64,000 bases of DNA from a virus, in the IMG/VR virus record IMGVR_UViG_3300045988_123629. One strand, 5' to 3'. The notes beneath the pieces were generated by a model that did not search any database, was not told the origin of the DNA, and was given only the letters and a program-made list of their open reading frames with translations. Below, in pieces: positions 12,739 to 64,000 of this stretch. Positions within the stretch are counted from its first letter, which is position 1; each line of letters opens with the position of its first letter. The position numbers and the translations under genes were made by a program.

Positions 12739-13320
12739 ATGAAAATTAATGGTGTAAATTTACCTAAATCAAGTTTTCTTTCTGTTGAAAAAGATTTAGA
12801 AATTATTGTAAAACATCTCTGCAAAAATGAGAGATTAAAGCGCTTATTATATTATACAACAAAAGATGCTATTGATAAGCCAGATTTAAATGACGAACAA
12901 ATGATTCAATTATTTAATAAAAATATTAAATTAATTCCTAAACTTTATGTTGATGGAAGTGTATTAAATTATGTAATTATTAATTTTGATAATTTTACAC
13001 AAAGCGGAAATCCTGAGTTTAGAGATAACATTATTGAATTCGATATTATTTGTCATTTTGATCAATGGCATTTGAAAGATTATCAATTGCGCCCTTATCG
13101 TATTGCCGCGGAAATTGATAGCATGATAGATAAAACGCATTTAACTGGTATTGGTAAGTTAGAATTTCTTGGTGCAAATCAAATTATTTTAACTGATGAA
13201 TATGCGGGTTTGTGTCTTATGTATCAGGCAGTTCATGGTGAAGAAGATAAAAAATCTATGCCCAATCCCAATGACGAGGAAAGATTTATAGAAGATTTTA
13301 AAAAAAGAACTGAAGAGTAA
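12739..13320 (+). CDS. hypothetical neck or tail-terminator-like protein; TAG-free
   Basis: RBS aaggagtaaaaggtgttATG; 193 aa; TAA stop overlaps the next ATG. Confidence 0.4.
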   Translation: MKINGVNLPKSSFLSVEKDLEIIVKHLCKNERLKRLLYYTTKDAIDKPDLNDEQMIQLFNKNIKLIPKLYVDGSVLNYVIINFDNFTQSGNPEFRDNIIEFDIICHFDQWHLKDYQLRPYRIAAEIDSMIDKTHLTGIGKLEFLGANQIILTDEYAGLCLMYQAVHGEEDKKSMPNPNDEERFIEDFKKRTEE

Positions 13321-39297: not shown

Positions 39298-42200
39298 ATG
39301 TCTAAGATACGTTTTCGTCCTGTATAGGGTCCAGAAGAAAAGATAAAAGCATATCCACAAACTGATGGATATTTTTATGTGGCAACAGATACCGGACGAG
39401 TTTATTTAGATACAGCGACTGAGAATAAAATACCAATAGGTTCAAGTGGCGTTTAGGTAATTTATGGAACTGAAAAAGACGTCGGAATTGATTATGATGC
39501 GGATGAAAACCCAATCGGATATTCAATTCGTTTATCTAATTTATCAAGTTCTAATCCTCATGTAAATGATTTAATTTTAAATAGCGATGGAGCATTTTAT
39601 CGTATTAAAGAATTTAAATTAAATGATGATAAAGAAGAAGTCGCAAGTTGTGAAAAATTATTGGCGGGCGGTGGAAGTCAAGACCAAGAAGTCAAAGTAA
39701 ATGGTACTGTTTCTTTAACTTTAGATGGGCCTACTGATGTGCTTAATGGTGAATCAGTAAGCGTGACCGCGCTTGTAAAATGTAGAACAATAAACGGAGA
39801 ACCAGTTCTTGATTCTGTTGAAGGTACTTTAACTATTAGATAGAAAAAGAGTGATGGTTCTTGGGAAGATATTTATAGTGAAGCAAAAACTTATCAACAT
39901 AATAAACCAATTACTATTGATATTTCTGCTCATTTAAGAAAATCTTCCACACATGAAATTGAGTTTATTGTTAGTAAAAATAGTGACTCTACTAACAATC
40001 ATTTTTCTGCAACTAAGAAAACTCAATTTATAACTACTCATGAATTAACTCTTTAGTGGTAGGAAAGTAAATTTAATAATAATTTACCTTTTGATAATGG
40101 TTAGATTAATGTTACTTGGTTGATGTCTAATAAAGTAAATAGTGCTATTGAAGTTTATTTTGATAATTATTTAGTTTTAGATAAAGAATATGATAATACT
40201 AATACCAGAAATGAAGATAGTGTTACTATAATAAAGAATACAATTATTTTAAATAATAATAATGATTCTACAATAACTTTAGCAAATTATTTTCTTCATG
40301 GAGAACATACTATTAAAGCTAAACTTTATTTAGTTAACAACGGTGAAAAAGGAAATGGTACTGATTTTATTGAGAAAGAAATTGTTATTTTAGATAAAAG
40401 TAGTAAAACTCCTTTAATTTGGACTGGCGATTTTAAAACTGAATATTATACTTATGAAACTATTAAAATTCCTTTTAGAGTATATGATCCAAATGTAATA
40501 ACTGCGAAAGTTAGTTTGTATAAAAATGGTGTTTTATTAAGTACTCGTGAAATTAATGATTAGACTATATGGCAATACTGGGAAATTACTAATCTTTCTG
40601 TTAATGATAGTTCCTATTATACAATTAAAGTAGGAACTGAGCCATATGATTATTCTCGTAATTTTACTTTTACAATTAAAATAGACCCATTGAGAAATAT
40701 GGAGTTGGCTAGAAGTAATGATTTAAAAGTTAATTTTGTTGCTACTGGACGCTCTAATTCTGAGAGTAAATTAAGCCGTGAAACATTAGAAATTAATGGT
40801 AAATATGCGGAATTTAAAAACTTTAATTGGTATAATAATGGTTGGGTTTTTGATGATAATAATACTACTTGTTTAAGAGTTAGTAATGGAGCTGAAGTCT
40901 CTATTCCTATTGGATCATTATCTTTTGATAATAGTTCTTCTACTCCTACTCATAGTATTGAAATTCAATTTAAAATTAGAAATCCACAAAATTATTCTAA
41001 AGTAATTACAAAGTATACTCGTTATAAAGCAAGTGATGATTCTGGAAAATCTTGGACTGATAGAGACGCCTGGAATGCATTTAAAGATTAGTCTACTTAT
41101 ATTAATTATGATGAATTCTTAACAAAAAAATATTTACCAGAACATCCAGAAGCACCAAGTTATGATGAATTAACTTATAATGGATTAGATCAAGATTTTA
41201 ATTTAAATAATCTTGTTTGTGCTTACGGTTCTTTAAAAAATCCTTTAGGTATTTATTTTAGCCCTCAAGATGCTGTATTTACAGCTAATGGTGATGAAGA
41301 GACTGTTTCAGTTGATTTTGTAGAAGATGAAATGTTATATTTAACATTTGTTTATACAAGTTCTAAGCCTGGTCATACTGGTGGAGATTCTAAATTATTA
41401 GAAATTTTTTTAAACGGTGTTTTAACTAGTGTAGCTCGTCGTTCTGATAAATCTAGCAATTCTGCTTGGACAATTGATTCTGATGTGATTAAATTTATGT
41501 CTAATACTTGTGATATTGATATTTATAGTATTAGAGTTTATGATGCTAGCTTAACTATTCCTGACGTAGTTTAGAATTATGCTTTTGATAAAAAAGATAT
41601 TAATCAATGGGATCAAAAAGATTTATATGATTATAATACTATTTTAAACGATTACGTATTTTCTTATCGTAAAATGCTTGATTACAATACTGACCATAGT
41701 GATAAACCATTAATGCCATATATTATTTTAAAAACTACTAAAAATAATAGTGAAAGCACTGATAATAGACTTCCATACTCTAAAGAGAATGGTGCTCAAA
41801 AAGGAACTATGGAATTCGTAAATGTCCCATTAGATATTGCTTATGCTAAGGGCGAACTTGATAAAATAGTTGAAAAAGAGGGCTGGAAACCAGTAATAGA
41901 TGAAGAAACTAAGGAAATAAAATATACTGCGGTATAGAATTATTATTTACATCATTGCCCTAGCTTTATAACTCTTTTTGATAAAGCAACATTTTAGGTT
42001 TAGGGAACTTCTTCTCGTAATTACCCAAGACGTAATTATAAGGCTAAATGTAAAGAAGCTATGTTTATGAATAGAGGACCTTTTGAATCTATTTATAAAG
42101 AAGAAGAAGCAAATAATAATTTAAATACAAAAAGTAAGAGTTATCTTAAATTTTTCTATATGGATAATAATACTGTCGGTACTACTAAGTTTACTCTAAA

Positions 42201-45200
42201 AATTGATTTTATGGAATCTTCTGGAGATTATAATAGAGGATTTGCTAATTTAGTTAATGAAACTTATTCTAAGCATCCAATAGAAGATTATCAAGAGTCT
42301 TTTGACAAATATGATTTATATGGAAATGCTGATGATTATAGAACTTCTATGAAAGGATATCCTGTTTTAGCATTTCATTGGCCTTCAACTAATGACAATG
42401 AATATAGTGAAAACGATATTATTTATATTGGAAAATATAATATGTTATTAGATAAGGGGTCTGATGAATGTTTTGGATTTAAACCTGATAAAAAGGTTTT
42501 ATAGAATCAAATTAATGGAACTCCAAAAGTAAGAGATATTGCTGAATGTTGGGAATTTTAGAATAATTCAAGAACATATTGTTCTTTCCGTGACCCTTGG
42601 AATAGATATAAATTATCTTTTAGACCTCCATTAATGGATGATAAAAATTCAACAGGTTACTTAACTTCTGGCGGAGCTCCAATAGTTGCTGACTCTTTTG
42701 AAGTTAGATATAACTCTAATGATGATTTAATCACAGACCAATTATTTAAGTGCATTTCAGCGGAAGCTACCGACGCGGACAAGATAATTGAATTTACTGA
42801 CGCAATAAATAATACAGTTCCCAATAGATTAAAATCAGAAACCATTATTGATAATTCTACTGGTATTAAACATAAACAATGGACTATTACTAATCCAGGA
42901 CAAAATCCTATCATCTTTGATATGAAGAATAGAAATACTTCTCGTGAATTACTTCTTGCATTAATGTCAAATTGGGAAGATGCCGTAAGTTGGGTTTGGA
43001 GTACTTGTTTAGATTGTAGCATTGATTTTGATGGAGTTTTATATGAAGTTCCTTCAATGGGTCAATATGAGAAAATAGATTTAGCTGAAGCCAAGTATGA
43101 GCCAAATAAATATTATCTATTTGATAAAGTTGATGAAAATGGTAGCGAAACTTATAAAATTGCCACTGAAGATTTTAATTTAGAAGAAAAATATTATATT
43201 TATAATAAAGATAGTAAAGTTTATAGTATAATTAAATTAACTGATGATGATAATAAAGTTTATTAGATAAATAAATACTATATTTTATAGAATTAGGATA
43301 ATAAAATTTATATCTTAGATTCTGAAAAATATAATCCTTATACAACTTATTATTCTTTTATTGAAGATGAAAGCCAAATTGATGATAGATGGTTATTACC
43401 TACACCGATAATTTATAACTCAATTACTTACCATAAAGATAGTAAGGAATATCGTCAAGCTAAATTTAAAAATGAGTTAAGCAATTATTTTAATATTGAA
43501 TATTTAGCTACTTATTTTTTAATGACTGAGATTTTTGAATGTTATGACTCTCGTGGTAAAAATGCAATGTTTGCTTCTTGGGGTCCTCAAAAAGGAAATA
43601 TTGAAAAAACCACTGGAATTCAACATTATATTTGGTATCCTATTTTTTATGATATTGATACTCAATTAGGCATTAATAATACTGGTATTCCATCATTTGA
43701 ATATTATGTTGATGCTACTGAAGATGGTAGTTATTCTACTAATGATAGCGTATTATGGAATAATTTCTATACTTTTTTTAAGAGTAAAATTATTGATAAA
43801 TACAAGCAATTAATGGGTAAGCCAAATGGATCTTATGATTAGAGTCAAGTAAAACAAATTTTTAAGAAAGAGTCTGGAACTTCCTCTAAAAAAAGTGATG
43901 TTGTTGATAAATGGTATAAAACAGATCCTTCTTTATTCCCAGGTAGTTATGCTGTATAGGGAGAGCGTCCTATTATTGCTTTAAATTTAGATGAAGAATA
44001 TAAATATATTATTCCAACTAATTCAGCAGCCAAGGATACTATTTTTGGTCGTATTACTAATGGTGGTTAGTACGAAGTAGAAACTGATTAGTATTTTTAT
44101 GCTTTATAGGGTGACCGCAATCTTTATCGTTCTCAATTTTTAACTAATCGTCTTAATTATATTGACTCTTGGTTAACCGTAGATGAATATTCTGGAGATA
44201 GTGGTAGTAATAATATTATAAGTCGTATTTCTGCTAACAATCCGAATACTACATCTGATGAATGGATTGAAGGAACTAATAATCAAGGCTTAACTAATTT
44301 AATAACTAATTCTCAATATTGGAAAAATGGTACTGAATTTGGTACTAAAAATCATATGTTTGATGGTGAGTATTGGATTAAGATGGAACCCGCGCGTCGT
44401 TCTTATGTTACTGTTGGAACTGATGGAGCAAACTTCCCATCTTAGAAATATGATGGTTTAACTCCTGTTAGATTTACCGCCCCAGATCTAAAGAAAGGTA
44501 TTATGTCAAGTGGTAATTATCGTGAACAATTATATTATATTTATGGCTTAGAATAGATGAAATCTCTTGGAGATTTAAGTAAATTATATTTCCAAGAATT
44601 ATTTATTAGAGGTAAGGCTAATAAATTAGTAGATTTGTTATTAGGATATGATGGTCTTTCTGAAGAAGGAAAAGAATATAAAAATAATGACGTAAATAAT
44701 TGGAGTTATCCTAGTGAGGGTATGCCTTTATTGAAAGAAATGAATCTTTGTAATATTAGATTTTTAAATCCAGTAGCTTTAGATTTAACTAAAAGCGAAA
44801 AATTAGAAAACTTTAGAAATACTGGTTCTAATGTTACTAAAGTGTAGTTTGCAGAAGGTGTCGCGTTAAATACTTTGTATTTAACTGATTATACAAATTA
44901 TTTAAGTTTAATAGAAGCAAATCTTTTAACTAAGTTAGTTACTAAATATGTATATCCTACAGTTAATTCTATCACTAATCGTCTTGAAGTCGCAGAAGAA
45001 AATAAAGGATTGTATATTAAGAATTTAACTGATGCTGAAGATAATGCAATTACAACAAGTATAAAAACTTTTGATATCCGTGGTGGTAATCTAGATTATT
45101 ATTCTTACGAATTATTAAGACGTTATTATCTTGGGTGTGAAAAGAGTAATTTAATTGGATGCGAAGTTAATTTAACTAATGTTCAATGGAGTCCTTATAG

Positions 45201-47001
45201 ATTATTAAATGATGATAAAACAAAGTTAGATAGTGTTAATATTGAATATTATAAAGATAATGGACATTTCCAATTAGAAAAAATTAACGCGGAAGATATA
45301 AGTAAAATTACTCCAAGTGAAATAAAAAATAATTTAATTTATTATTATGATAATAGTGTAAATGGATATAATGATATTCACAATAAAATTATTGATTATA
45401 CTTTATTACGTAGTTTATATGATAAAGCTCCTGTTTATTTCAAAGGCATTAATTAGACTTATCCTAATATAACTGGCATTATTTATATTGAAAATACCCA
45501 AGAGATAGAAGAACACATAATTCAAGAAGAGCTATAGAGTATTTATCCTAATTTAACTATTTTTGTAAAAAATGTTAAGAAAGAGTATTCTGCTAAGTTT
45601 GTCCTTGAGCAAGAAGACGCGAATGGAGTGTTAACTCAAGAAATTTTAAAGACTTAGAAGTTACCTTTATCAAGCTCTAAGTTTTTTGATAATCCTACAG
45701 ATTCTTCAAGTGAAACTTATATTTCTTTTGGTAGTTTACAAGAAAAAATGCCAACCTATAATTTTAAAGGTTGGGAAGACGATACTGGTGAATTAGTAAT
45801 TACAGTTGGAAAAGATGTAAATGAAAAAGATATTGTTTTAAAAGATAATTGGGATTCTTTATCTTTGCGATCTGATAAAATAGATTATATTTTTAAAGCG
45901 AGATTTGAGCGTAAATCTTATACAATTACTTTTGTTAATGGCGATCGTGTTATTGATGATTCAACTGTAAAGAAAGTATTTAATTATGGTGAAAGGATTA
46001 CTGTTCCAGAAGAATTTTATTATTTTAATAATACAGAAGTATCTGATTTACCAGAAGGCGAAGACCCATTAGAATGGACTTGGAGATAGACGGGATGGGC
46101 GGATAAAGATGGAGTTAAAATTGATTTAACTAAACAACTAGCCTATGCTGACCGCGAATTCTATGCTATTGGAGAACCCATTAGTGTTTATAATAATATT
46201 TTAACTAATGATTCTACTCATAAATATTATGATATTATAAACTCTGATGGAGAATTATCATTTGCAATGACTGACTTAGCTAAGAATTTAAAAGGCAAAA
46301 TTACTTTACCTACAACTTATAATGGTTAGCCAATTACAAGAATTAAATATAGCCAAGTTAACCCCTCAGCAGCAGTTGGTATACAAGTAAATCCTAATAT
46401 TACTGCTATATTCTTTGCTCCAAAAGATAGTAATAAAATTTCTGTAATAGATGATTATGCCTTTATTTTAGATAGTGGATTAGAATATTTTTAGTTCAGT
46501 GATTGTTTAAAGAAAATTGGCATTAAGGCATTTTATCAATGTCCTTTAAGTCGTAATAATATAATTCCTTATTCTTCTTCTACGGAAGGTTTGACTTTTG
46601 GAGCTCAAGCATTCTATCAAAGTAAGATGGGGTCTTATTCTCCTTATAATTTAATTATAGAGGGATGTAAAGATGGTATTCTTAACTTTGATGTAAATGC
46701 ATTCTCTGGTTAGACAATTTTAAATATGTCTGGTAATTAGTTTAAGGGTTATACTGGTGCTATTCAAGTATAGATTGGCACTAATAAACATCCAATTAAA
46801 TAGATTACAGCAGATAGTTCTGGTAATATTTTTACCCCTCGTCAAACAGGTATGCCTACTGTTGCCAATGGATATACAGGTCGTTTTAGATATTATTATG
46901 TTGCTAGTTATGGTGAAAGTGTTAAGAATACTTTACATAGAATTTATGAAGCAATGATATCTAATAGAGCAAACTTTGAAGAAGAACCTATTGTAAAGTG
47001 A
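39298..47001 (+). CDS. giant 2567-aa fibre or host-interaction protein with C-terminal BspA-type leucine-rich repeat region
   Basis: Twelve ORF-track fragments (39661, 40120, 40690, 41332, 41674, 42061, 42634, 43522, 44557, 44875, 45748 and others) share one frame from the ATG at 39298 to the TGA at 46999-47001 and are separated only by TAGs; N-terminus RFRPVQG...YFYVATDTGRVYLDT matches the fibre anchor motif; 46090-47001 has LRR_5-like repeats (IFFAPKDSNKISVIDDYAFILDSGLEYFQFSDCLKKIGIKAFYQC). Confidence 0.6.
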
Positions 47002-50754: not shown

Positions 50755-51165
50755 ATGGATCAAAATTTAATTAATCAATTATTCCAAGTATGTTTGATTC
50801 CTATGCTTGGCGCTTTAACTACTTTTATAGTTATTTGGATTAAAGCAAAAAGCGCGGAATTACAAAAGAAAACTAATAATGATATTTTAAATAAATATGT
50901 GCAAATGGCTACTGACACAATTACTAACTGTGTTATTGCCACTAATCAAACTTATGTAAATTCTCTTAAAGAACAAGGTAAGTTTGATGAAGCTGCTCAA
51001 AAAGAAGCATTTTAGAGAACTTATCAAGCAGTATTGCTTATTTTAAGTGATGATGCTAAAGAGTATTTAAATAATGCTTTTGGTGATTTGAATAAATATT
51101 TACAAGAGAAAATTGAGTCTACAGTAAATAATTATCGTACTCCAAGTAATGATTTAAAACAATAA
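50755..51165 (+). CDS. putative holin (LL-H-like), 136 aa
   Basis: RBS aaaaaggagataatattATG; N-terminal transmembrane helix LIPMLGALTTFIVIWI followed by a charged amphipathic region (QTYVNSLKEQGKFDEAAQKEAF...); one TAG; last gene before the bidirectional terminator. Confidence 0.5.
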
Positions 51166-51212
51166 AAAATAAGGGAGACATTCTTAATTGAATGTCTCCC
51201 TTATTTTTTTTA
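51165..51212. terminator. bidirectional rho-independent terminator between convergent genes
   Basis: aaaaaataagggagacattc, loop ttaatt, gaatgtctccctt, then atttttttt; A-run on the left side and T-run on the right. Confidence 0.7.
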
Positions 51213-51926
51213 TCTAAATGGATTTTTCCATCGTCGATTAATTTCTTCATAGCCTTTTTTAGGAAAATATAAAACTTCACCATTTTTAAAAGTTAAATTA
51301 TCTTTATTCATTATTTTAATTTGATTTAAATTAATAATTAAACTTGGTGGAATAAAGACAAAATCTGGATGATAAACTAAAGTTCCTATATAATTTTCAA
51401 AAGAAGTTTTTAAAGTTTTACTATTTAGAATTTCATTCTCTAAATGACAGCACAAATTTCGTTTTTGAATATCAGCGTATAATACTTTATTTAAATCAAT
51501 TTTTACTTCTCCATTAGGAGTATCTAAATATTTATATTCACGTCTTTTTTCTTCTCTAACTTCATGTAAAATAGAAAAAATTTTTTCTTTATTAACAGGC
51601 TTTTTGACAAAATTAAATGCCTTTACTTCATAAGAAGCTACTCCACAATTTATTTGAGAGGAAACAAAAATTATTTTTCCAATATACCCATTTGTCCTTA
51701 AAAGATGAGCTATTTCAATACCATCCATTTTTTTAAATGTAATCCCTAAAAAAATTGCATCATAATCAATATTAGAGTTAATTAATTTTTCAGGATCAGT
51801 AAATTTATATACATATCCTGGTAAATTAAAATCTTTAAAATACTGATTTATTATTTCTTCCAATGAGTCATTTTGCTAATCGCTATTGTCGCAAACACCT
51901 ACGATAAAAATTTTAATCACCTTCAT
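51210..51926 (-). CDS. LytTR-family response-regulator-like transcription factor with a degenerate receiver domain
   Basis: Minus-strand ATG at 51926 (MKVIKIFIVGVCDNSD), with a TAG in frame to ORF 51210-51863; receiver-like region GKIIFVSSQINC...VKAFNFVKKP and C-terminal LytTR-like region (KIDLNKVLYADIQ...HPDFVFIPPSLIINLNQIK...EVLYFPKKGYEEINRRW); TAA stop; no obvious Shine-Dalgarno. Confidence 0.65.
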
Positions 51927-52058
51927 TTTGTTTATTTTAGAAAAAATTTTTCTATCTTTATATTCTTTCTATATTATAATTATACAAAAATTTTTAAATA
52001 TTGTAAAATAAAAAATTATAAAGTGTCAAATTTATTTAATTTTGAGTAAGTGAAATTT

Positions 52059-52086
52059 TTATCCAAAAAGTGTCAGTAATTATAAT
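52059..52086 (+). promoter_or_regulatory. candidate sigma70 promoter for the island operon
   Basis: ttatcc at 52059-52064, 16-nt spacer, tataat at 52081-52086; about 84-nt leader to the ATG at 52170. Confidence 0.35.
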
Positions 52087-52169
52087 ATATTTACACAAAA
52101 TAAAAGTTATATAATAATGAAAGAAAAAGATAAAACCTTTCATTATTATATTTCTCCGGAGGTAATAAC

Positions 52170-52616
52170 ATGAATACTTATGGTTATCCATAGCAGTAGT
52201 ATCCAATAGGTAATAATAGACCTATTTATGGAACAACTGCTACCCCTGTGATTCAAAACAATACTGCATAGCGAATTAGACCTGTTGCTTCTTTAGAAGA
52301 GGTTCGAGCTATGAATATAGATTTTGATGGTTCAGTTTTTTATTTTCCTGACTATGCTAATCGTAGAATTTATACAAAACAAATAAATATGGATGGAACA
52401 GCTTCTATTAATATGTATGAATTAAAGGAAATCCCGAATTCTTCTTAGCCTAATAATGATTATATAACACGAGAGGAATTTAATACTACCTTAACTTCTA
52501 TTAAAGAAGTTTTTGCATAGATCATGGGATCCAATAACGCGGTTGCGCCGTCCCAAGGGATGGATTAGCCAGCTCAATAGCAACCAGCAGAGAGCAAACC
52601 GCAGTTTAATTTTTAA
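52170..52616 (+). CDS. Gln/Asn-rich hypothetical protein, 148 aa, island gene 1
   Basis: RBS ggaggtaataacATG; 8 in-frame TAGs; product YGYPQQQYPIGNN...PAQQQPAESKPQFNF if TAG is Gln. Confidence 0.45.
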
Positions 52617-52628
52617 GGAGAGTTTCAA

Positions 52629-52877
52629 ATGACACAATCAATGAATCCAATGCAAATTATCGCTATGATTAAAAACGGTCAAAATCCATAGCAATTAGTT
52701 TTATCTATGCTTGAAAATCAAATGGGTGGAACGCCAATGGGCAATAATTTATTACAAATGGCACGGAACGGTCAATCCGATGACATTGAAAAATTTGCTC
52801 GTAATTTGTTTGAATCAAGAGGTTTGAATTTCGATAAAGAATTTAATAGTTTTAAGTCCCAAATGGGGTTTAAATAA
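52629..52877 (+). CDS. small hypothetical protein, 82 aa, island gene 2
   Basis: RBS aaggagagtttcaaATG; one TAG (NPQQLV if TAG is Gln); TAA stop. Confidence 0.45.
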
Positions 52878-52903
52878 ATAAAATTATAGAAAGAGGTTTT
52901 GTT

Positions 52904-53785
52904 ATGTTTAATTACAATTATCCAATGAGCACGCCGAATTATTCATTATCCGATATTGCTGCGGCTTCTGGAAATGGCTATCGTAATAATGATGGCGGAA
53001 TGTGGGGAGACGGAGCATGGTGGATTATTATCCTGTTCTTATTCTGCTTCAATGGTTGGGGCGGTAATGGCTGGGGTAATAATGGTGCTAATGGTTCTGG
53101 TTTCCAAGGCACTACGACTCGAGAAGAATTAAATTATGGTTTTGATATTAGTGATCTTAAATCTGGAGTCAATAGTTTAAATTCTACTCTTTGCAATGGT
53201 TTTAGTGGAGTAAATACTAATCTTTTAAGTGGTTTTGCTAATCTTGCTGAAACTAATAATGCTAATACTCGCACTTTACAGAGTGATATCTGTAATATGG
53301 GTATGAACAATATGCAGAATACCTTTAGTATTACTCAGGCCATTAATGCTGATACTGTAGCAAGTATGCAGAATACTAATAATTTAACTCAGCAATTAAG
53401 TAATATGGCAGCTACTAACGCTCAATGCTGCTGCGAGAATAAACAGTTAATTCAGTCTAGTTTCGCGGATCTTAATTACAATCTTGCTAGTATTGCTTGC
53501 CAGAATCGTCAGGCTACCGTTGATGGTGTCCGCGATATTATTGACAACAATAATGCTAATATGCGTTCTATTCTTGACTTCCTTGTTCAAGATAAAATTG
53601 AGACTCTTACCAGTGAAAATAGCACTCTTAAAAATTAGATTTCTCAAAATCTTCAAAATGCTTATCTTATTGATCAGTTGTCTCCAAAAGCAACTCCTGC
53701 TTATATCGTTGCTAATCCTTATACTGGTGTTAGCTATACCAGTTATGGATGCGGTTATGGTTCAGGATGCGGTTGTAATTCCTGA
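52904..53785 (+). CDS. membrane protein with YjcZ-like Gly/Trp-rich transmembrane N-terminus, Asn/Gln-rich middle and Cys-rich C-terminus, 293 aa, island gene 3
   Basis: RBS gaaagaggttttgttATG; N-terminus GGMWGDGAWWIIILFLFCFNGWGGNGWGNNGANG; CCCENK and C-terminal YGCGYGSGCGCNS; one TAG; TGA stop. Confidence 0.5.
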
Positions 53786-53806
53786 TTGAAGAAAGAAGGT
53801 TAAATT

Positions 53807-54228
53807 ATGGAAATAACGGCTAATGCTTTACAATCAGTTGCTACTGGTTCTAATGTAGTATTCACTAACACAGCTGTTGCTGGAAACTGTTCCATAATGT
53901 ATCGCGAGGGTAGCGGTTTAGTTACCCTCCGCGGTCTTACGAACGGTCAACGCAGAGCTCGCTTCCGCATTTCATTTGGAGGTAATATAGGACTTCCAAC
54001 TACTGGAACTGCGGGTGCTATTTCTTTGGCTATAGCTATTAATGGAGAGCCAGTTACTACTTCTACAATGATTTCCACTCCTACGGCTACTGGATAGTTT
54101 AATAATGTTTCACGTGCTTTATTCCTCGATGTGTTAGGCGGTTGTTGCACTCAAATCAGTATTGAAAACACGAGTTCATAGGCTATTGATGTTGAAAACG
54201 CCAGCTTAATTATCGAGAGAGTGGCATA
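53807..54228 (+). CDS. BclA C-terminal-domain-like (C1q/TNF-like) exosporium-type protein, 140 aa, island gene 4
   Basis: RBS gaaagaaggttaaattATG; NVVFTNTAVAGNCSIMYREGSGLVTLRGL...RFRISFGGNIG...AISLAIAINGEPV pattern; one TAG; TAA stop. Confidence 0.4.
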
Positions 54229-54242
54229 AGGAGGTTTTTTAA

Positions 54243-54788
54243 ATGTGTGATAAATTCCAAGAAATTAAAAAACAATTATTAACTCAAGTAGAAGGCCAAA
54301 TGGCTCATTTAGAATGTGTTGATACAAAGGAAATGGGCGAAGTAATAGATATGATAAAAGACCTTGAAGAGGCTATTTATTATTGCACTATTACTGAAGC
54401 TATGAATGATTTACCTGAAACCACACATTATTATACTGAAAAATATAAATCTCCTCATAAAAAAAGAATCTATAAACCTATGACATATGATTATGATTGG
54501 GAAGATTATGATTATGATGAGCACGAATATGAGATGCCAACGAGTGGAAAATCTCGTGAAACCCATGATAGTAGAGAAGGTCGTAGTGGCGTCCATAGAA
54601 AGATGTATATAGAAGCCAAAGAACTTCATAAAGATAAGAGTGTTCAGATAAAAGAGTTAGATAAGTATCTTCAAGAATTAAGTTCTGATATAGTAGAAAT
54701 GATTGAAGATGCTTCTAATGATGAACGTTCTTATATGGAGAAGAAAATCTAGGCTTTAGCATCTAAAATTGGATCTATGAATGGTTAA
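54243..54788 (+). CDS. acidic Tyr/Asp-rich hypothetical protein, 181 aa, island gene 5
   Basis: RBS aaggaggttttttaaATG; DYDWEDYDYDEHEYE stretch; one TAG; stop overlaps the start of the next gene by 8 nt. Confidence 0.45.
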
Positions 54789-55101
54789 TATTAATAATAG
54801 GAATTGGAGGATACTATTAGTATCTTCCAATCATCCTATGTTAATGCGACCTTCTGGAATATATACTTTAGGTTCTTGTGATGATCCTACTTCAACAATT
54901 TATATTAATGAAAATATTAGCAATAAAAAATTAAAAAAAGTATTAGCACATGAATTAACTCATGCTGCTATTTTTAGCTATGATATTTCATTAAAACCAG
55001 AAGAAGAAGAATTGATTGCAGATTTAGTGGGAACTTATGGCGAAGAAATTATAAATAATACTAATCTTTTATTTAAATAGATAAAAAAAATAAGGGAATG
55101 A
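54781..55101 (+). CDS. mini ImmA/IrrE-like HExxH metallopeptidase, about 106 aa, island gene 6
   Basis: KKVLAHELTHAAIFSYD, where the HExxH is preceded by a basic stretch as in ImmA/IrrE; translationally coupled to 54243-54788; the ORF-track end at 55080 is a TAG and read-through gives a TGA at 55099-55101. Confidence 0.45.
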
Positions 55102-55137
55102 AACTATTTTTGTTTCATTCCCTTATTTTTTTTTATT
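55084..55137. terminator. bidirectional rho-independent terminator
   Basis: aaaaaaaataagggaatgaaac, loop tattttt, gtttcattccctt, then attttttttt. Confidence 0.7.
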
Positions 55138-55564
55138 AGTCTTTAAGCGGTAATTTTAAAGTCCTTTCATAGTACTCTTTAGCCTATCCATTTCCACCTA
55201 AACCTGCATATACTTTAAAGAATTCGACTAACTATTCATACTGCCCTGAAGTCATATATCCTTGTTTTAAGAAACTTTGACATAACTGAATTAATCTAAA
55301 TCTATAAGAAGCAAGAATTATTTCAATATATCTCTCACTAATTTTCTTTTCTTCCAATACGAAAGATCTTAAATTATTTAGATCTTCTTTGATTGGAGCT
55401 ATATGCTCTTCAATTAATTCTTCTAATTGTTCATCTTTCTTTTCTTCTGCCAATTTTTGATACATTTTCATTTGAGTATAAATATATCTACAAAAGGCTA
55501 AGAGGCCAGCAGAAATAAGACCAAAAAATATTTCTATAAAATGCTAGGCAATAAAAGTAGACAT
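55136..55564 (-). CDS. small membrane protein, 142 aa, last gene of the minus-strand module
   Basis: Minus-strand ATG at 55564 after a perfect aaggagg; N-terminal transmembrane helix FIEIFFGLISAGLLAF; ORF 55232-55471 extends through 2 TAGs to the TAA at 55136-55138. Confidence 0.45.
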
Positions 55565-57829: not shown

Positions 57830-58282
57830 CTAATTGCGAGAACCGCGCAAAGGTAAAGTAATATCTCTTTCCTTTTGGATATATGGTCCATCAATTAGAT
57901 AATCAGCAGTTTTTAGTATATTCTTAATTCTAATATTATTACTATTCTTTAAATCATCATAAACATATCCAGTCCATATATATATTTTAATGTTTGGATA
58001 TATTTTTTTAATTTCAGTAATAACTAAATTAGTTAAAAATTCGTTTTCAGGGCAGAGAGGTTCTCCACCCATAATACAAAGATTACGCGCAACATTATTC
58101 GCATTAATAGCAGTAATTAATTCATCTAATACTTTATTAGTAAATTCTTTGCCACCATTAAAATCCCACGTTTCAGGATTCTGACATCCTTCACAATGGT
58201 GCGGGCACCCTTGTGTAAAAAATGATACACATACTCCGGGTGCCGCCGCCAAATCATTCTTTATAATTCCTGCATATTTCAT
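57830..58282 (-). CDS. nrdG: anaerobic ribonucleotide reductase activating protein (radical SAM)
   Basis: CVSFFTQGCPHHCEGCQN Cx3Cx2C cluster near the N-terminus; start overlaps the nrdD stop (ATGA); TAG-free. Confidence 0.8.
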   Translation of the reverse strand: MKYAGIIKNDLAAAPGVCVSFFTQGCPHHCEGCQNPETWDFNGGKEFTNKVLDELITAINANNVARNLCIMGGEPLCPENEFLTNLVITEIKKIYPNIKIYIWTGYVYDDLKNSNNIRIKNILKTADYLIDGPYIQKERDITLPLRGSRN

Positions 58283-60600
58283 TCTAATGCTCCTGTATGT
58301 TTTACTCTTGCTTCAACTTCTTTTTGTTTACCCCAGTTAAAAGCAGTTTTATAATTGCCTGTAAGATAGCCAGTTACACGACGTAATTGCTGAATATTAT
58401 GGCTTCCACACACTGGGCAAGAATCATTAAATTCATCACAATAACCGCATTCAAGGCAAGTGTCATTAGGAACATTTACTGCGAAATAAGGAATATCATG
58501 ATCCATAGCATAATTAACAATAGTTTCAAGAGCATCAATATTATGTTTTACAGTAGAATCAAGTTCAACATAAGTGATACATCCTGCGGATGAATAACCA
58601 GTCAGCTCAGATTCAATATCAATTTTTTCAAATGGACTCATTTCTTTCCACACCGGAACATGAATACTGTTAGTGAAAAATTCTCTATCACTAACATTAG
58701 GGATAATTCCATACCTTTCTTTAAATTTCGTCATAGCTGTATAACAAAGATTTTCTGCTGGAGTATAGTATACACCAAAATTTAATTTATATTTTTCTTT
58801 GTATTCAGCGCATCTTTCTTTAAATAATTGTTCAATTTGTTTAGCTAATTCCATTCCTTCTGAAGTGGTGTGGTCTTTACCAATAAGAATTTGAAGAGTT
58901 TCTGCCAAACCTAACTGACCAATAGCAAGAGTTCCATGCTTAAGAGCAGAACGAATTCCCTCTTCTGGGATATAGCCTGCCATAACGTTATTTTCATACA
59001 TAAATTTCGCGGAACCTGGATCTTGAGAACAAATCCACTCAAAACGCTCCATTAATTGAATACGCGCTTCATTGATTTTTCTATCGAGTAAAGACATAAA
59101 TCGTTCTACGCCAATTTTAGTCCGTTCTTCTTGAGACAATGATTTATAGTCATCCCAATTATCATTTTCATTTAGAGTAACGGCCATCATCGCTAGAGTA
59201 GGAAGAATAATAGTAACTGGACAAATATTTCCACGTCCATCTTTAAGCTGGCCGAATCCATTAATATCCCATCCATTCGCGGTTCTGCATCCCATCGTAG
59301 AAAAATAAGTGCGAGGATCATTAATATCATATCCAGCATTACCGGACCAATCAACATTTGCATAATTAGGATAAAGGCGTCTTGCGGTGCTTTCTAATGC
59401 TAATCTATATAAATCATAGTTAGGATCACCAGGTTTGCGGTTAACACCTTTCATACATTGGAAAATTCCACAAGGGAAAATCGAAGTTTTATGAAGTTTA
59501 CCAAGACCTTCAATAGAAACATCTAATAACGCCTTAGTCACCATTCTGCCTTCTGGTAAGGTGCAAGTGCCATAATTAATACTCGTAAATGGTAATTGGT
59601 TACCGCTACGAGACTGTAAAGTATTAAGATTATGGTAAAGACCTTCTGCAGCTTGATGAGTCTCACGGACAGTCATATCATAGGCATAATCATAAGCCTT
59701 TTTATAAGTTTCAGAAGCTAATAAATAACTAACTGCATTTTCTTCTTCAGTTTTTGTTGTGGCATTTCGGTATGATTGAATAGGCATTTTTGATGTGTCT
59801 AAATCTCCTAATACATTATTAACAATATAGTTATAATCATTAGGACTATATAAGTATTTAACTCCATCTTTAAAATGCTTCCAAAAAGATTTTCTTACAT
59901 AAGGAACCATAGTCCAATCTAAGTGAGTGGCACTAACTCCGCCAAACTAACAAAGACTTTGGATTTGAAAAATAACAGCAATTAATTGAAATGCTGTATT
60001 AATTGAACCCGCAGGACGAACATCTGCTTGACGAGTATTAAATCCATTAGCAAGCAAATTATCAAAAGGAATACTTAAACAGTTATGAGAACCAACATAA
60101 TAAGAATCAAGATCGTGAGTATATATCATATTATCAATATGATTCTTACGAGCCATAGGGGAAAGTAAGTAATCAAGTGCAAGTTGTTTGGTGACAACAC
60201 CACTTGCTTCACCTATACGACCACCGAATGAATGTTCATCAACATTAGCATTTTGATTTTTTACGTTATTACCATCGAGCTTTTCACGAATTGCTTTAAT
60301 AAAATCATCTTTTTTATTACGAGCAACTTCTTTTTTATATCTATATCTGATATAAGCACGAGCAACATCGCGTCGCTCAGAACGCATTAAATAATCTTCA
60401 ATCCAATCTTGAAGATCTTCTACTCCAACACTTCCATCGGGGAAATGATTTATTTGTCTTTCAATGTCTTCCGCGATATCTTTTGCGGTATCATCTTCAT
60501 ATAGTTTACCATCAACTTCAATAAATGCTTTATTTATTGCGTTAATAATTTTCTTTTTATTAAATTGAGTTATACTTCCATCACGTTTAATAATATACAA
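58279..60600 (-). CDS. nrdD: anaerobic ribonucleoside-triphosphate reductase
   Basis: ORFs 59947-60600 (ATP-cone-like MYIIKRDGSITQFNKKKIINAI) and 58279-59910 are in the same frame, joined across in-frame TAGs; C-terminal CGYCDEFNDSCPVCG Zn ribbon and RVTGYL glycyl-radical motif; TTG start 9 nt after ggagg. Confidence 0.85.
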
Positions 60601-60795: not shown

Positions 60796-61251
60796 CTAAA
60801 ATTGAATTTCATCAGTAGTATATCTTCTAATGATTTCATTTACATCAGGATTTTTTTCTCTATTTAATTGCCTAATTAAGCGTGTCTTTCCTTTAGCGGT
60901 AATATAATATATCTCCAATTCAATTCTATCATCTTTAAGAAGACTTATAATTCCTTCAGGATTAAAAACACCAATATTAACTTTACTATCAGACAAACTA
61001 TCAATACTTGTGCCATAATACCAATTATTAAAAGAAGTGGTTTCTAACATTTTATTTTCATCAATTAAAGTTAAAAACTGGTCATCTGAAACAAAATGAT
61101 AATTTTTGTCTGCTATTTCTTTTTCACGCTTCGGGCGCGTAGTGTGGCTTATAATAGGATTTAAATATTCCTCTAAGTGGGAAAAGGTAGCCATCATTAG
61201 GCTATCTTTTCCCGCACCAGATTTTCCACATAATGCAATAATTTTATACAT
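60796..61251 (-). CDS. guanylate-kinase-like nucleoside monophosphate kinase
   Basis: P-loop ALCGKSGAGKDS and SHTTRPKREKE...YHFV, as in guanylate kinases; the ATG at 61251 (aggagg 11 nt upstream) overlaps the DnaE stop as ATGTATAA; an alternative in-frame ATG at 61281 has no RBS. Confidence 0.6.
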   Translation of the reverse strand: MYKIIALCGKSGAGKDSLMMATFSHLEEYLNPIISHTTRPKREKEIADKNYHFVSDDQFLTLIDENKMLETTSFNNWYYGTSIDSLSDSKVNIGVFNPEGIISLLKDDRIELEIYYITAKGKTRLIRQLNREKNPDVNEIIRRYTTDEIQF

Positions 61252-64000
61252 CTTCTTCAATTCCTCCTTGATAACGAGCATCTTTTAAAACTAAATCGCC
61301 ATTAGATAAAATTTCATCAATTTTATATAATTGATGCCCTCCAGAAGAAGCATATTTTTTTGACATGAAATTATCTCCATTGCGGATTCCAGAGACTACA
61401 ATCATATTTCCGCGATTAAACCAAGATTTTTCAACAATATGTTTGGTTCCATCTGCACCGCGCTCTGAAATTTGTTTATCAAACAAACTAAAATATTCTT
61501 TTCTAAATTTTACTTCTACAGGACCAGTAGTAGTAAGGATAGTTACGGTACTTTTAGTTTTATTTTTGGCAATACAAGTTCCGCAAATTTTAAATAACTT
61601 ATAAATATGAATAGTATGATTTCCTTTAGTAAAACTTCTATCAATTATTGGGTCTTCTGGAAGTTTAAAGAAATCTACAAATCCATATTTATCATTGTTA
61701 ATATTGTTTAATTCATGAGTATGATAATAATAACAAAGAACTTCCATTTCCCAAGCGGATAGATTATTTTTATTAGCGTATTTATCCCAATCATCTTTAA
61801 ATATTTTTATATTCAGATTATTCAAAATTTCATCTTTATTATTAGCAATCCAAGTGCGAAATATATCCATCCACTTTTGGTATATACCATTCCAAATATT
61901 TTCACTTAAAGAATAATTAGTTCCATCAAATTGAATATTATTATCTTCTCCAATTTCTACTAAGAAATTAATAGCTCGTTCATCAAGTTGATATAAACCA
62001 TTATTTTTTGTAGTTTTACAAATTGCTTTTAAATATCTATTAAATTCATAAATACGGCGAGCCATAATTTGATTTTCATTTTCTTCTGGAAGAAGATCAT
62101 ACTTCATAAGTCCGCCCATATTTTGAAGAGTAATTCTTTTCTTTTTGTCGCAAGTTTCCCAAATATACCAAATCATTAATTCTTTTCTATCCATCATATT
62201 ATCAAAAGCTCCGCCTTTAATAAGAGAAATCATAGCTTGTTTACCTGGCTTAATACGATATAAAAATTCTTTAGGATTTGAATAAGGGCGATTGGCAATG
62301 ATTGTATTAACTAATTCATCACCAACATTTAGCATACCTTTTAGTCCAAAAAGGATTTTATTATTTTCAATATCAGGGGCAAATCCAAATTTAGATTTGT
62401 TAATATCAGGAAGACCTACTTCAATTCCTGCTTTTTGAATGTCACTAATAGCCTTGGCAATTTTTCCATAATCAGTAGCCGCGGTTTTGCGGATTTTGCC
62501 ACTTTTGTCAGGAAGATCTTCAAATGTTACTCCATTAGCTAAATCATCGCCTTCAGGAGCATAAATATCGACAATCTCTTCTTCGCTATTATCTTCAAGG
62601 GAACCACTATTAACAATTAAACAAGCGGTATCCCAATAGATAGGATTAAAATGAATTACTAAGTAAATCATTTGAATTGCTACAAATGAATAAGGAAGGG
62701 AATGGTTAAGGCTAAATGCATATCCTAATTGAGGAGCAACTGCAATTTCCCAAAAGTATTCAGCAGATTTTTCATTATCAAATTTACTAAATACTTGTTC
62801 TCTCAGTTGTGGAATTTTAGCCATTTGCTTTTTAGCAACAATCTTACGCGCAGTATTAGCTTCACCAAGAGTAAAATGAGCTACATCCATAAGGATTTCC
62901 ATCATTTGCTCTTGAATAGGACAACATCCATAATATTTATCACAATGCTTATGCATCTTATCAATTAATTCTTGTGGAAGATGCTGAGCCTTCATTTCAT
63001 CATCAAATACTTTAATACCCGAATGTTGAATGCGATAATATCTATCTTGCTGTGATTCCTTGCCTTTTTCAGACATAAGACGCATCATAGCATTTGCCGC
63101 CGTCATTTCCATAGGGTCTTGGGGTTTAAGACGTTTCGCAATTGCTAAACCAACTCCCGTAGAAAATTGGAATACATCTAATACATCACCCGCGGCAAGG
63201 TGGTCCCAAATTGCTTGGTCAGTTGTATCTATTACTTCTGGATGAATATATTTATTATAGAATTCTCGTAAAGATAATTCTGGAATTTGTTTATCTTTTA
63301 GAAGTAATTGATAACAAGTAATAATTTTGTCAGAAGCTTCAGTTACAAGGAAGTCATATTTTGTATCTCCCGCGGCTTCCGCTTTATGAAGATCCCAACA
63401 AGTAATCATATCTCCACTAGGAGTTCTCATAAATGATGCTGTATCAAATGGATCGTCACCATACAAAATAACGCCAGAAGCATGAGAAGAACGTTTATTA
63501 ACCATTCCTTCAATATATACAATAATATTCAAAAGACCAGGATATTGGTTTACTTCTCGAATAAATGCTTGAACGGGTTTACGGTCTTTTTCTTCATTAC
63601 CATAAATAACATCATGGATAGGCCATAAAAATCCACGCTCTTGGGGAATTAATGAAGACATATATTGAGCATTATCAACATCAATTCCTTCTGGAAATTC
63701 TTCACTTCTATATCCACGACAAGCAGTTAAAATACTTTGTTTAGTGCCTTCAGTTCCAAATGTAGCAACTTGAACCAATCCCAATTCTCCGCGTTCTTTT
63801 CTAATTGCTTTAAAAATTGCGGGACGCTTACTTGGGGCAAGGTCAATATCAATATCGGGCAATTCCGCGCGCTCCTTATTTAAAAATCTCCAATAAGGAA
63901 GTCCCCAACGAATTGGGTCTAATTGAGTAATACCTAAAAGATAATTAGATAAAAAGCCAGTCGCAGAACCACGTCCAGGACCTACAATACTTCCACATTC
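61244..64000 (-). CDS. dnaE: DnaE-type DNA polymerase III alpha subunit, C-terminal two thirds; the 5' end lies beyond the window
   Basis: Frame is open to the window edge; ...VGPGRGSA... and LPDIDIDL palm-domain motifs; VATFGTEGTK, HASGVILYGD and KYDFLV blocks colinear with E. coli DnaE; TAG-free over more than 900 codons. Confidence 0.8.
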   Translation of the reverse strand, partial: ECGSIVGPGRGSATGFLSNYLLGITQLDPIRWGLPYWRFLNKERAELPDIDIDLAPSKRPAIFKAIRKERGELGLVQVATFGTEGTKQSILTACRGYRSEEFPEGIDVDNAQYMSSLIPQERGFLWPIHDVIYGNEEKDRKPVQAFIREVNQYPGLLNIIVYIEGMVNKRSSHASGVILYGDDPFDTASFMRTPSGDMITCWDLHKAEAAGDTKYDFLVTEASDKIITCYQLLLKDKQIPELSLREFYNKYIHPEVIDTTDQAIWDHLAAGDVLDVFQFSTGVGLAIAKRLKPQDPMEMTAANAMMRLMSEKGKESQQDRYYRIQHSGIKVFDDEMKAQHLPQELIDKMHKHCDKYYGCCPIQEQMMEILMDVAHFTLGEANTARKIVAKKQMAKIPQLREQVFSKFDNEKSAEYFWEIAVAPQLGYAFSLNHSLPYSFVAIQMIYLVIHFNPIYWDTACLIVNSGSLEDNSEEEIVDIYAPEGDDLANGVTFEDLPDKSGKIRKTAATDYGKIAKAISDIQKAGIEVGLPDINKSKFGFAPDIENNKILFGLKGMLNVGDELVNTIIANRPYSNPKEFLYRIKPGKQAMISLIKGGAFDNMMDRKELMIWYIWETCDKKKRITLQNMGGLMKYDLLPEENENQIMARRIYEFNRYLKAICKTTKNNGLYQLDERAINFLVEIGEDNNIQFDGTNYSLSENIWNGIYQKWMDIFRTWIANNKDEILNNLNIKIFKDDWDKYANKNNLSAWEMEVLCYYYHTHELNNINNDKYGFVDFFKLPEDPIIDRSFTKGNHTIHIYKLFKICGTCIAKNKTKSTVTILTTTGPVEVKFRKEYFSLFDKQISERGADGTKHIVEKSWFNRGNMIVVSGIRNGDNFMSKKYASSGGHQLYKIDEILSNGDLVLKDARYQGGIEEDV

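Follow-up and report, generated by a model that had tools for sequence, protein, structure and literature searches.

Introduction

Why should a phage keep, at the end of its late region, a compact block of small genes whose products bear the name "hypothetical protein" in every source database, and do these products imitate the surface of bacterial spores? The question is raised by the plus strand of IMG/VR virus record IMGVR_UViG_3300045988_123629, where six genes, called here g1 to g6, follow one another at positions 52,170-55,101; the whole analysed stretch of this DNA, 64,000 nucleotides (nt) long, is referred to below as the window. A preliminary description, made from the sequence alone, saw in the block a terminator-bounded island of spore-surface mimics in a phage of a spore former. 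According to our analysis the block is a single representative of an accessory cassette that is widespread and moves horizontally, and that is found in hundreds of gut and rumen Clostridia phages. As the best of several explanations, and only tentatively, we suggest a late-expressed accessory complex in which g3 would be a membrane stalk, g4 a head of the C1q/TNF type and other products low-complexity partners, acting on the cell envelope around lysis.

Distribution of the cassette

Searches by tblastn with retrieval of the loci gave 102 loci, about 100 of them with the cassette, and the order g1-g2-g3-g4-g5 is near-invariant among these, in phages of unrelated types, so the block is not a private island that relatives lack. 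The opposite picture, which the preliminary description had set against its own idea, namely conserved structural genes present in all relatives, holds only in part: g1-g5 are conserved and collinear. Homology of the distant versions is based on shared PHROGs for g1, on direct BLAST for g3 and g4 and on transitive BLAST for g5, which links the Dulem, Ruminococcus-phage and Ceridwen versions named below.

The first group of carriers consists of jumbo recoded phages of about 100-200 kb, where a holin gene stands directly upstream of g1 in 42 loci and g6 follows in 54 loci. The second is represented by Ruminococcus sp. OM02-16LB with a 45-kb phage or prophage that is very common. Ahead of its cassette stand phrog_3754, which is a small Cys/His protein without a match to Peptidase_C39, to any other Pfam family or in PDB, as well as a protein with transmembrane and coiled-coil parts and a gene of sigma-region-4-like type. 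To the third group belong Dulem viruses 33, 36 and 39 and the lytic Butyrivibrio fibrisolvens phage Ceridwen with the full g1-g5, and in Ceridwen and Dulem 33 the cassette comes after the endolysin region, with endolysin and small genes upstream. The fourth includes C. perfringens phages (CPD1 and others), where g4 is replaced by another Cys-rich beta protein. Thus the position of the cassette within late regions varies among phages. Small transmembrane and coiled-coil genes occur inside or beside it in Dulem 36, Dulem 39, CPD1 and the Ruminococcus phage, and those of Dulem 36, Dulem 39 and the Ruminococcus phage have no match to Pfam or PHROG holin families. One 45-kb Ruminococcus phage locus (L089) carries two further genes of unusual placement: a 574-residue protein between portal and MuF (1727-3451), which by eye resembles a depolymerase-like right-handed beta-helix, and a holin-like gene with three transmembrane segments inside the head-tail connector module (12192-12461).

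Natural deletions also exist: one locus (L014) is without g2-g3 and another (L017) without g6. In metagenome sequences P0245, P0259 and P0364, as well as in L014 (219-899), the N-terminus of the Cys/His protein or of g1 is fused to the C-terminal part of g4, with g2-g3 gone, and these chimeras look like remnants of a decaying cassette. The deletions and chimeras indicate that the cassette is dispensable. By inspection, homing-endonuclease-like genes sit between g4 and g5 in Ceridwen (L001, 7512-8306) and between g2 and g3 in CPD1 (L021, 6570-7193).

A scan of genome contigs returned only 9 loci, apparently phage contigs binned into metagenome-assembled genomes; the bin names (Mollicutes, Anaeroplasmatales, Clostridium and others) reflect phage contigs swept into bins, and neither hosts nor a chromosomal setting can be read from them reliably. 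Neither the databases nor the literature covered by a limited search contain a described equivalent, as the preliminary description had supposed, and in the same limited search neither a paper on the cassette nor proteomic data came to light. What is already known is that the families stand in PHROGs as "unknown function" and that a few g4 relatives are named "BclA protein".

The g4 protein

The AlphaFold2 model of g4, made with 34 homologues, is all-beta and confident (pLDDT 88.9, pTM 0.85, monomer) and has the ten-strand jelly-roll beta sandwich that is superimposable on the C-terminal domain (CTD) of BclA, on C1q or on TNF. Foldseek places it closest to F-BclA (E-value 5e-7) and to BxpB and ExsFA (template modelling scores of 0.73-0.75), with BclA also among the best solved matches, while identity to solved members of the fold is 12-19%. 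The beta-strand pattern of the BclA CTD, read earlier from the letters, is thus borne out at the level of the fold, with spore-surface proteins as the best solved matches. No Pfam model, BclA_C (PF18573) included, matches g4 at E ≤ 1, and NCBIfam models also miss it. On the strength of the model we regard g4 as a stand-alone jelly roll of the C1q/TNF superfamily, BclA-C/ExsF-like.

The family is large, with at least 4,719 clusters at 90% identity, and an exhaustive profile search returned 838 clusters at 50% identity. The best 150 of these 838 are 71-196 residues long, with no collagen region and no fusion to collagen or fibre domains. Within the 140 residues of g4 there are no repeats, and no exosporium leader was matched (NCBIfam, E ≤ 1), as would be sought in a BclA-type nap glycoprotein. 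Its closest neighbours in the viral structure library belong to its own family, stand-alone phage proteins of 130-145 residues, two of them named "BclA protein". With its invariant GCC motif g4 is the most conserved and the slowest-evolving cassette protein, keeping 60-98% identity where neighbouring genes keep 30-55%, and it always stands alone, directly after g3.

Its fold and size fit those of the ExsFA/BxpB adaptors, and the PAYxVxNPY motif is conserved in g3. In solved structures of ExsF trimers, a Pro-rich leader peptide is docked in the clefts between subunits (PMC12357932). A C1q/TNF fold is not by itself a sign of spore mimicry, because it is also a standard head of viral fibres.

The Cys-rich substitute of g4, of about 125 residues with C-x-CC or CGGC at the N-terminus, is found in the C. 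perfringens phages, Dulem 36 and some uncultured phages (Table 1). It is unrelated to g4 and has no Pfam, PHROG or PDB match; for CPD1 and Dulem 36 the idea of an Ena-like pilin was considered and dropped, being without Pfam or PDB support. This protein may be an alternative head for g3.

The g3 protein

In the alignment g3 is built of an N-terminal peptide (YSLxDIAAA), a hydrophobic helix, a coiled coil with a CCC cluster, the PAYxVxNPY motif and a Cys-rich tail. The helix, WWI(I/L)(I/L)LFLF (WWIIILFLF here), is near-invariant and has Gly/Trp-rich flanks; the coiled coil is about 180 residues long and rich in Asn, Gln, Ser and Thr; and the P-x-Y-x-V-x-N-P-Y motif is invariant. The protein corresponds to phrog_16490 (E-value 2.8e-32), and its family has at least 7,508 clusters at 90% identity. 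The AlphaFold2 monomer has helices at residues 39-49, 82-147 and 155-259, at a pLDDT of 55, too low for a fold search. Weak matches to the trimeric coiled coil TolA_bind_tri of Pfam were seen in 17 of 45 family members, the profile against PDB and the members against Pfam gave coiled-coil matches at chance level only, and the C-terminal coiled coil has weak tblastn matches to proteins annotated as viral fibre or spike.

The Cys clusters that had been pointed out earlier are present (CCC at residues 175-177, GCGYGSGCGC at 282-291), and they are the only feature common with the CotY/Z coat proteins to which g3 had been likened: there is no match to the model of the Spore-coat CotZ family (CotY/CotZ/ExsY), either for the window protein or for 45 family members. 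The resemblance of its N-terminus to YjcZ-type proteins could not be upheld either, as the window protein has no Pfam or NCBIfam match to them and 45 family members have no Pfam match (E ≤ 1), and with 293 residues g3 is far from the 30-50 or so of the YjcZ type. A double-glycine leader was also considered for YSLADIAAATG and rejected: most consensus positions match, but the glycine expected at -1 (the residue after G23) is not conserved.

In several relatives g3 is interrupted, exactly within the codons of WWIIILFLF, by inserts of 230-342 nt (Table 1), and in one more (L042, 6223-7019) by an insert of 797 nt with an open reading frame (ORF) like an HNH/NUMOD homing endonuclease; g3 of the window is uninterrupted. 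The first exon ends in U and the insert in G, removal restores the frame A-W-W-I-I-I, and compensatory changes are seen at 22 of 59 predicted base pairs among five copies. Rfam gave no match to the insert even at E ≤ 1. In these features the insert looks like a self-splicing intron of group I type.

The remaining cassette proteins

Protein g1 is Gln/Asn-rich, as had been noted (N 10.8%, Q 9.5%). Its N-terminal low-complexity region, rich in Gln, Asn, Pro and Tyr, is followed by a conserved beta-rich core of about 55 residues (IRPVASLEEVRAMNIDFDGSVFYFPD..RIYTKQINMDGTA), a helix and the end (E/Q)F(K/N)F; it matches phrog_21718 (E-value 5e-7; 1e-29 for the Ceridwen homologue) and has no Pfam or PDB match, a profile search included. 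A small helical protein rich in Met, Gln and Asn, g2 always stands between g1 and g3 (96 of about 100 loci) and reaches DUF6240 below threshold only. The acidic, Tyr/Asp-rich character ascribed to g5 is confirmed (Glu, Lys, Asp and Tyr prevail, net charge -14): helices at both ends enclose a disordered centre rich in Tyr, Asp, Arg, Ser and Gly, with a conserved RDSREGRS motif and no Pfam or PDB match. For g1, g2 and g5 no relatives of known structure or function were detected in Pfam, PHROG and NCBIfam, nor for g1 and g5 in PDB.

The suggestion of a miniature HExxH protease coupled to g5 also proved right: g6 has HELTH at residues 56-60 and EEEE at 74-77, and its start overlaps the stop of g5 by 8 nt. 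Pfam gives DUF2268 (24.5 bits, cut-off 23.6), Peptidase_M78 (E-value 3.2e-4, 20.9 bits, cut-off 22) and, below cut-off, SprT-like; among PHROGs it matches the metallo-proteases phrog_1233 and phrog_87 (3.9e-6 for the latter), and the nearest solved sequence is MJ1213 (E-value 0.025). The frame passes a TAG at 55078 and stops at TGA 55099, and the N-terminus of this longer reading is conserved in homologues. On these motifs g6 is a minimal zinc-peptidase-like protein, of the gluzincin/M78 kind, with catalysis predicted. The pair g5-g6 was also considered as a repressor and protease of the ImmR/ImmA type, and this was rejected: g5 and 9 members of its family have no helix-turn-helix (HTH) or significant Pfam domain.

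None of the six proteins has a signal peptide. Muralytic domains are absent from g1-g6 (Pfam, PHROG, NCBIfam), and the adjacent holin-like gene has no canonical lysis-cassette partner among them; capsid- or tail-attachment domains were likewise not recognised in Pfam and PHROG. PADLOC gave no match at E ≤ 0.01 for g1-g6, the neighbouring regulator or the downstream transmembrane protein.

Genetic code, genomic setting and regulation

With TAG read as a sense codon the summed length of ORFs of at least 100 residues in the window is nearly doubled and a coherent phage map results. Reading TAG as Gln is supported by homologues, which show Gln or other sense residues at the 13 in-frame TAG sites of g1-g6, standard-code phages included, and by the full length of database homologues of the cassette proteins. 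Under this reading the six plus-strand genes are found as first described, and they are under purifying selection (dN/dS of 0.017-0.116 in comparison with relative L004). The contigs of close relatives are about 190-198 kb long, and we therefore assign the window to a jumbo phage with genetic code 15. A tRNA scan of the window revealed no tRNA gene and hence no suppressor tRNA there, and an Rfam scan of the window gave no match.

The cassette lies where the late (plus) and the replication (minus) arms converge. The former (336-51165) holds large structural genes, including those of 2770- and 2567-residue proteins, with a holin-like gene at its end, and the latter, from 55136 on, genes labelled by Pfam on relatives as RuvC-like, dUTPase, NrdG/NrdD, guanylate kinase and DNA polymerase III alpha. 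The cassette stands downstream of tail-fibre genes and on the strand of the structural genes; the earlier statement that it runs opposite to its surroundings does not hold, since all of 336-51165 is on the plus strand and upstream only the LytTR gene is on the minus strand. For the 2567-residue late protein (39298-47001) we suspected a CotH-type kinase in the central region, and no Pfam domain was found there (residues 601-1700, E ≤ 0.01).

In-frame TAG is present in all six cassette genes, and g1, with 7 such codons (4.7 per 100 residues), is the densest gene of the window; some late genes have 2-4.7 per 100 residues. TAG does not occur in the dUTPase gene or in that of polymerase III alpha (61244-63661), occurs once in the 702 codons of NrdD, and is likewise absent from genes 8064-8981, 8999-10105, 10192-10785, 12739-13320 and 14070-15053, which are probably structural genes of high expression. 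TAG is also carried by other minus-strand genes, so that this gradient is suggestive only. Recoding has been proposed to delay translation of late genes (bioRxiv 10.1101/2021.08.26.457843). Under that idea the strand and the TAG use, the gradient being part of the basis, suggest that the cassette belongs to the late class.

The nrdD gene is a single ORF of 702 residues in the window (58279-60387) and is split in relatives: in L008 (12371-14859) it is called as two pieces of 402 and 311 residues, and in L011 (12948-15724) a 215-residue product with a faint HNH match lies between two NRDD-domain pieces. We read the split gene as further evidence of mobile-element traffic in this phage family.

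The terminator scan found 6 terminator-like sites against 2.3 +/- 1.6 expected. In the two strong hairpins that flank the regulator and the cassette, the 13-nt arm AAAAAATAAGGGA is identical and the design is alike, with a stem of 20 bp including the A/T runs. Of the two bidirectional terminators that were said to bound the island both are real, and the upstream one lies beyond the LytTR gene and is not the island edge: between them are the regulator, a control region and the six genes, and the upstream boundary of the cassette is the 243-nt promoter region. Genes g1-g5 each have their own Shine-Dalgarno site and g6 is translationally coupled to g5. The holin-like gene closes the long late module, and in jumbo relatives it is usually the gene that stands upstream of the cassette. 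The convergent transmembrane protein on the other side has a conserved C-terminal domain (..GLGGNGQAK.YY..), adjoins the cassette in 34 loci, and has a homologue that adjoins the holin in relative L071.

The control region contains direct repeats AAGTG(T/A)(C/A)A at 52021, 52048 and 52068, spaced by 26 and 20 nt from start to start, and a promoter-like -35/-10 site at 52090-52118, upstream of g1. The AAAAAGTGT element, the TATATAAT -10 and the ribosome-binding site are kept in divergent LytTR-bearing relatives (L030, L032, L057), and the whole window contains just 4 copies of the 8-mer AAGTGTCA. The divergent protein matches Pfam Response_reg above cut-off (E-value 2.6e-8), LytTR below it (E-value 6.3e-4, 20.3 bits, cut-off 22.6) and, weakly, LytR/BtsR/AgrA of NCBIfam. 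Its position for the phospho-acceptor Asp is occupied by Gly (FLGI), so this REC-LytTR protein is atypical and probably phosphorylation-independent. An atypical divergent LytTR regulator had been proposed; this is supported, and conserved repeats lie upstream of the cassette promoter. The AAAAAGTGT element is a candidate LytTR operator, and repeats and promoter-like site fit activation of the cassette by this protein, whose binding we infer. As to the claim of a regulator-controlled module, it stands for two lineages, with LytTR here and the sigma-region-4-like gene, a different type of regulator upstream of g1, in the Ruminococcus phage, and does not hold in general: the LytTR gene is lineage-specific, being found in 17 of about 100 loci, in the closest relatives only.

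Table 1. Coordinates of the cassette, its neighbours in the window and related features of other loci
Feature	Sequence	Position	Strand	Remarks
Holin-like protein, 136 aa	window	50755..51165	+	N-terminal transmembrane segment and helical domain; phrog_13712 'holin', E 6.7e-38
Hairpin terminator, symmetric	window	51164..51209	both	A-run, GC-rich stem, T-run; between holin and LytTR 3' end
REC and LytTR regulator-like protein	window	51210..51926	-	divergent from cassette
AT-rich control region, 243 nt	window	51927..52169	+	direct repeats, promoter-like site, Shine-Dalgarno GGAGG
g1, 148 aa	window	52170..52616	+	
g2, 82 aa	window	52629..52877	+	
g3, 293 aa	window	52904..53785	+	
g4, 140 aa	window	53807..54229	+	
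g5, 181 aa	window	54243..54788	+	
g6, 106 aa	window	54781..55101	+	
Intrinsic terminator, bidirectional	window	55085..55131	both	common to cassette and convergent minus-strand gene
Convergent transmembrane protein	window	55136..55564	-	N-terminal transmembrane segment, coiled coil; phrog_4257 and phrog_4105, E ~7e-14
g3 insert	L008/L009	6890-7231		
g3 insert	L013	7051-7280		
g3 insert	L034	7107-7336		
g3 insert	L039	2454-2793		
g3 insert	L048	6685-6920		
g4-substitute gene after g3	L021	7902-8279		
g4-substitute gene after g3	L022	7387-7770		
g4-substitute gene after g3	MT835477.1	44092-44367		

Discussion

Strictly collinear, well-translated and largely non-enzymatic low-complexity proteins, together with one optional small peptidase, suggest a multi-protein assembly. 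It would be logical to suggest that g3 trimerises and anchors in the cytoplasmic membrane as a stalk, and that g4 docks onto this stalk or caps it as a head, which would be the anchor-stalk-head plan known from BclA and the TNF ligands, here divided between two neighbouring genes; by analogy, the conserved peptide of g3 may sit in g4 as the exosporium leader sits in ExsF. Proteins g1, g2 and g5 would be abundant partner or matrix proteins of low complexity, and one cassette protein may be processed by g6 or, in temperate phages, by the small Cys/His protein. The complex would be assembled late in the infected cell and act on the envelope at, or just after, holin-triggered lysis, and we propose this place of action because holins, endolysins and small transmembrane and coiled-coil neighbours recur, signal peptides are absent and the timing is late. 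It might control or assist the release, or coat membrane debris and neighbouring cells, and would be dispensable for virion production and not spore-specific.

Several observations weigh against such an envelope complex. The monomer model of g3 is poor, which is to be expected because the coiled coil would be oligomeric; the hydrophobic run is 13-18 residues long and carries no positive-inside signal, with membrane insertion and topology only predicted; and among the matches listed there is no fused g3-g4 protein. Since g4 is without a signal peptide, a head facing outside would need lysis or an N-out/C-in topology. Five conserved proteins are many for a lysis helper. A virion role fits at least equally well with the position between portal/MuF and scaffold/capsid genes in the 45-kb Ruminococcus phages and with that directly after the receptor-binding protein in Dulem 36.

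Comparison with known systems helps to place the proposal. In the exosporium of bacteria belonging to the Bacillus cereus group, where BclA, F-BclA and ExsFA/BxpB offer the closest structures to g4, BclA has collagen repeats and an exosporium leader, neither of which is present in the cassette, and the partner is the ExsY/CotY lattice protein, whereas g3 is a coiled coil with a hydrophobic anchor; the cassette, moreover, is phage-encoded, is expressed with late lytic genes and occurs also in a Butyrivibrio phage. TNF ligands and C1q combine a type II anchor or a collagen stalk with a trimeric jelly-roll head, whereas in the cassette anchor-stalk and head are separate proteins with a presumed interaction, an alpha-helical coiled coil forms the stalk, bacteria and viruses are the setting, and a receptor-type partner is lacking. 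Among Firmicutes phages the lysis cassettes may have extras, such as the beta-sandwich oligomers XepA/YomS of PBSX, XhlA and the transmembrane and coiled-coil peptides of BhlA/UviB type, which resemble the cassette in having beta-sandwich oligomers without signal peptides and small transmembrane and coiled-coil proteins beside holin and endolysin, expressed late; no sequence similarity to the cassette was found, and XepA is reportedly pentameric and not TNF-like. As to g6, with its 100 or so residues and its HExxH with acidic residues after it, it resembles the minigluzincins, represented by MJ1213 of M. jannaschii (PDB 4QHF-4QHJ), known as 'selecase', and ImmA/IrrE (M78), and matches them weakly in sequence; ImmR/ImmA pairs have an adjacent HTH repressor, whereas g6 is coupled to the acidic disordered g5.

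The main rival, which we hold unlikely but take seriously, is a virion-associated fibre or decoration with g3 as the trimeric shaft and g4 as the knob, in the manner of PRD1 P5, adenovirus, reovirus and collagen-like phage fibres; g1, g2 and g5 would then be assembly chaperones or linkers and g6 a maturation protease, and the fibre, non-essential like the side tail fibres of lambda, would bind glycans on host cells or mucus. The same head fold is present in PRD1 P5, in the short tail fibres of cyanophages A-1(L)/A4 and in collagen-like fibres of giant viruses and uncultured Caudovirales, the logic of a trimeric shaft is similar, and the cassette is co-oriented with structural genes, stands after tail-fibre genes here and after the receptor-binding protein in Dulem 36, and in the Ruminococcus phage is part of the head module region; the weak fibre and spike matches of the g3 coiled coil point in the same direction. 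However, in the fibres named above the knob is fused to its shaft and to a virion-attachment domain, whereas g4 is unfused in its best 150 representatives and no attachment domain was recognised, and a soluble fibre would not typically have the near-invariant, membrane-type helix of 13-18 residues that g3 carries. Jumbo phages and 40-kb phages of siphovirus type, whose virion genes are unrelated, have this cassette in common; it follows the lysis genes in Ceridwen and Dulem 33, and g4 evolves slowest, unlike receptor-binding heads. The Ruminococcus position, between a MuF-like minor head protein and the scaffold, would also suit internal head proteins that enter the capsid along with the DNA and, once ejected, make a channel through the host membrane, g6 serving as processing protease. 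Ejection proteins are often disorder-rich with a hydrophobic helix, as are the cassette proteins, and a small protease is at hand; but in every other lineage the cassette is outside the head module, it is common to phages with unrelated capsids, deletion variants exist and no function within capsids is known for a TNF-like trimer, so that we consider ejection the most improbable reading of all. About as unlikely as the fibre, or a little more so, is a self-assembling, cross-linkable, exosporium-like layer or fibre array, which gut and rumen Clostridia phages would build late, from a Cys-rich, anchored coiled-coil protein, an ExsF/BclA-like trimer and three low-complexity proteins, on membranes, progeny virions or cell remnants; if true, it would be a protective or adhesive coat made by a phage, without a described counterpart among tailed phages.

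Late-expressed phage cargo released by lysis, such as Shiga toxin and PVL, and morons adjoin lysis genes, and the similar position of the cassette, its terminators and its own regulator here invite the idea of an effector that lysis sets free, or that leaves through the neighbouring holin-like protein, and that acts on other cells, either as a bacteriocin-like membrane-active g3, with its Gly/Trp-rich hydrophobic segment, and g4 as the binding subunit or as a layer that excludes superinfection or masks receptors. The N-terminus of g3 agrees with most positions of a double-glycine leader, and the cassette comes with an HExxH peptidase or a small Cys/His protein. We find this quite improbable nevertheless: a Gly is not conserved after G23, no match to Peptidase_C39 or another Pfam family is seen for the Cys/His protein, an ABC transporter and an immunity gene are not evident, g3 is much larger than known class II bacteriocins, PADLOC is silent, and exclusion genes are normally expressed from prophages, while Ceridwen is lytic. 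The original idea of spore-coat or exosporium mimicry, with self-assembling Cys-/Tyr-rich proteins and an ExsF/BclA-like trimer on, or imitating, the host spore surface, so that the phage would be carried on or in spores or would alter their surface, has in its favour the exosporium proteins F-BclA, BclA and ExsFA/BxpB as the best solved matches of g4 (scores up to 0.75), products that like coat proteins have no signal peptide and contain much Cys, Tyr and low-complexity sequence, and variants in phages of C. perfringens, which forms spores; among Lachnospiraceae and Ruminococcaceae, too, there are many that sporulate. The link to a phage of a spore former is weak, as the complete g1-g5 is carried by lytic Ceridwen, whose host genus Butyrivibrio is not known to sporulate, no hidden Markov model of BclA_C, exosporium leader, YjcZ, CotY/Z, CotF or any coat family matches, collagen-like regions are absent from the best 150 g4 relatives, and late lytic expression beside a holin is no sporulation context. 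We therefore judge spore mimicry very unlikely.

The envelope complex of g3 and g4 remains the explanation to which we lean. The cassette is abundant, mostly in gut metagenomes, strictly ordered, under purifying selection and a target of homing endonucleases and of an intron-like element, and yet all of it is annotated as hypothetical. Compared with known stalk systems headed by C1q/TNF domains, what is new is that it is phage-borne and split, has a hydrophobic-helix anchor and comes with four further conserved proteins. Ceridwen is cultured and carries g1-g5, so direct testing is possible. If g3 and g4 do form a membrane-anchored complex, it would be a new, split and phage-borne branch of the BclA/ExsF/TNF architecture, and would point to an unrecognised step of late infection in Gram-positive anaerobes, be it release, masking of debris, adhesion or protection of particles.

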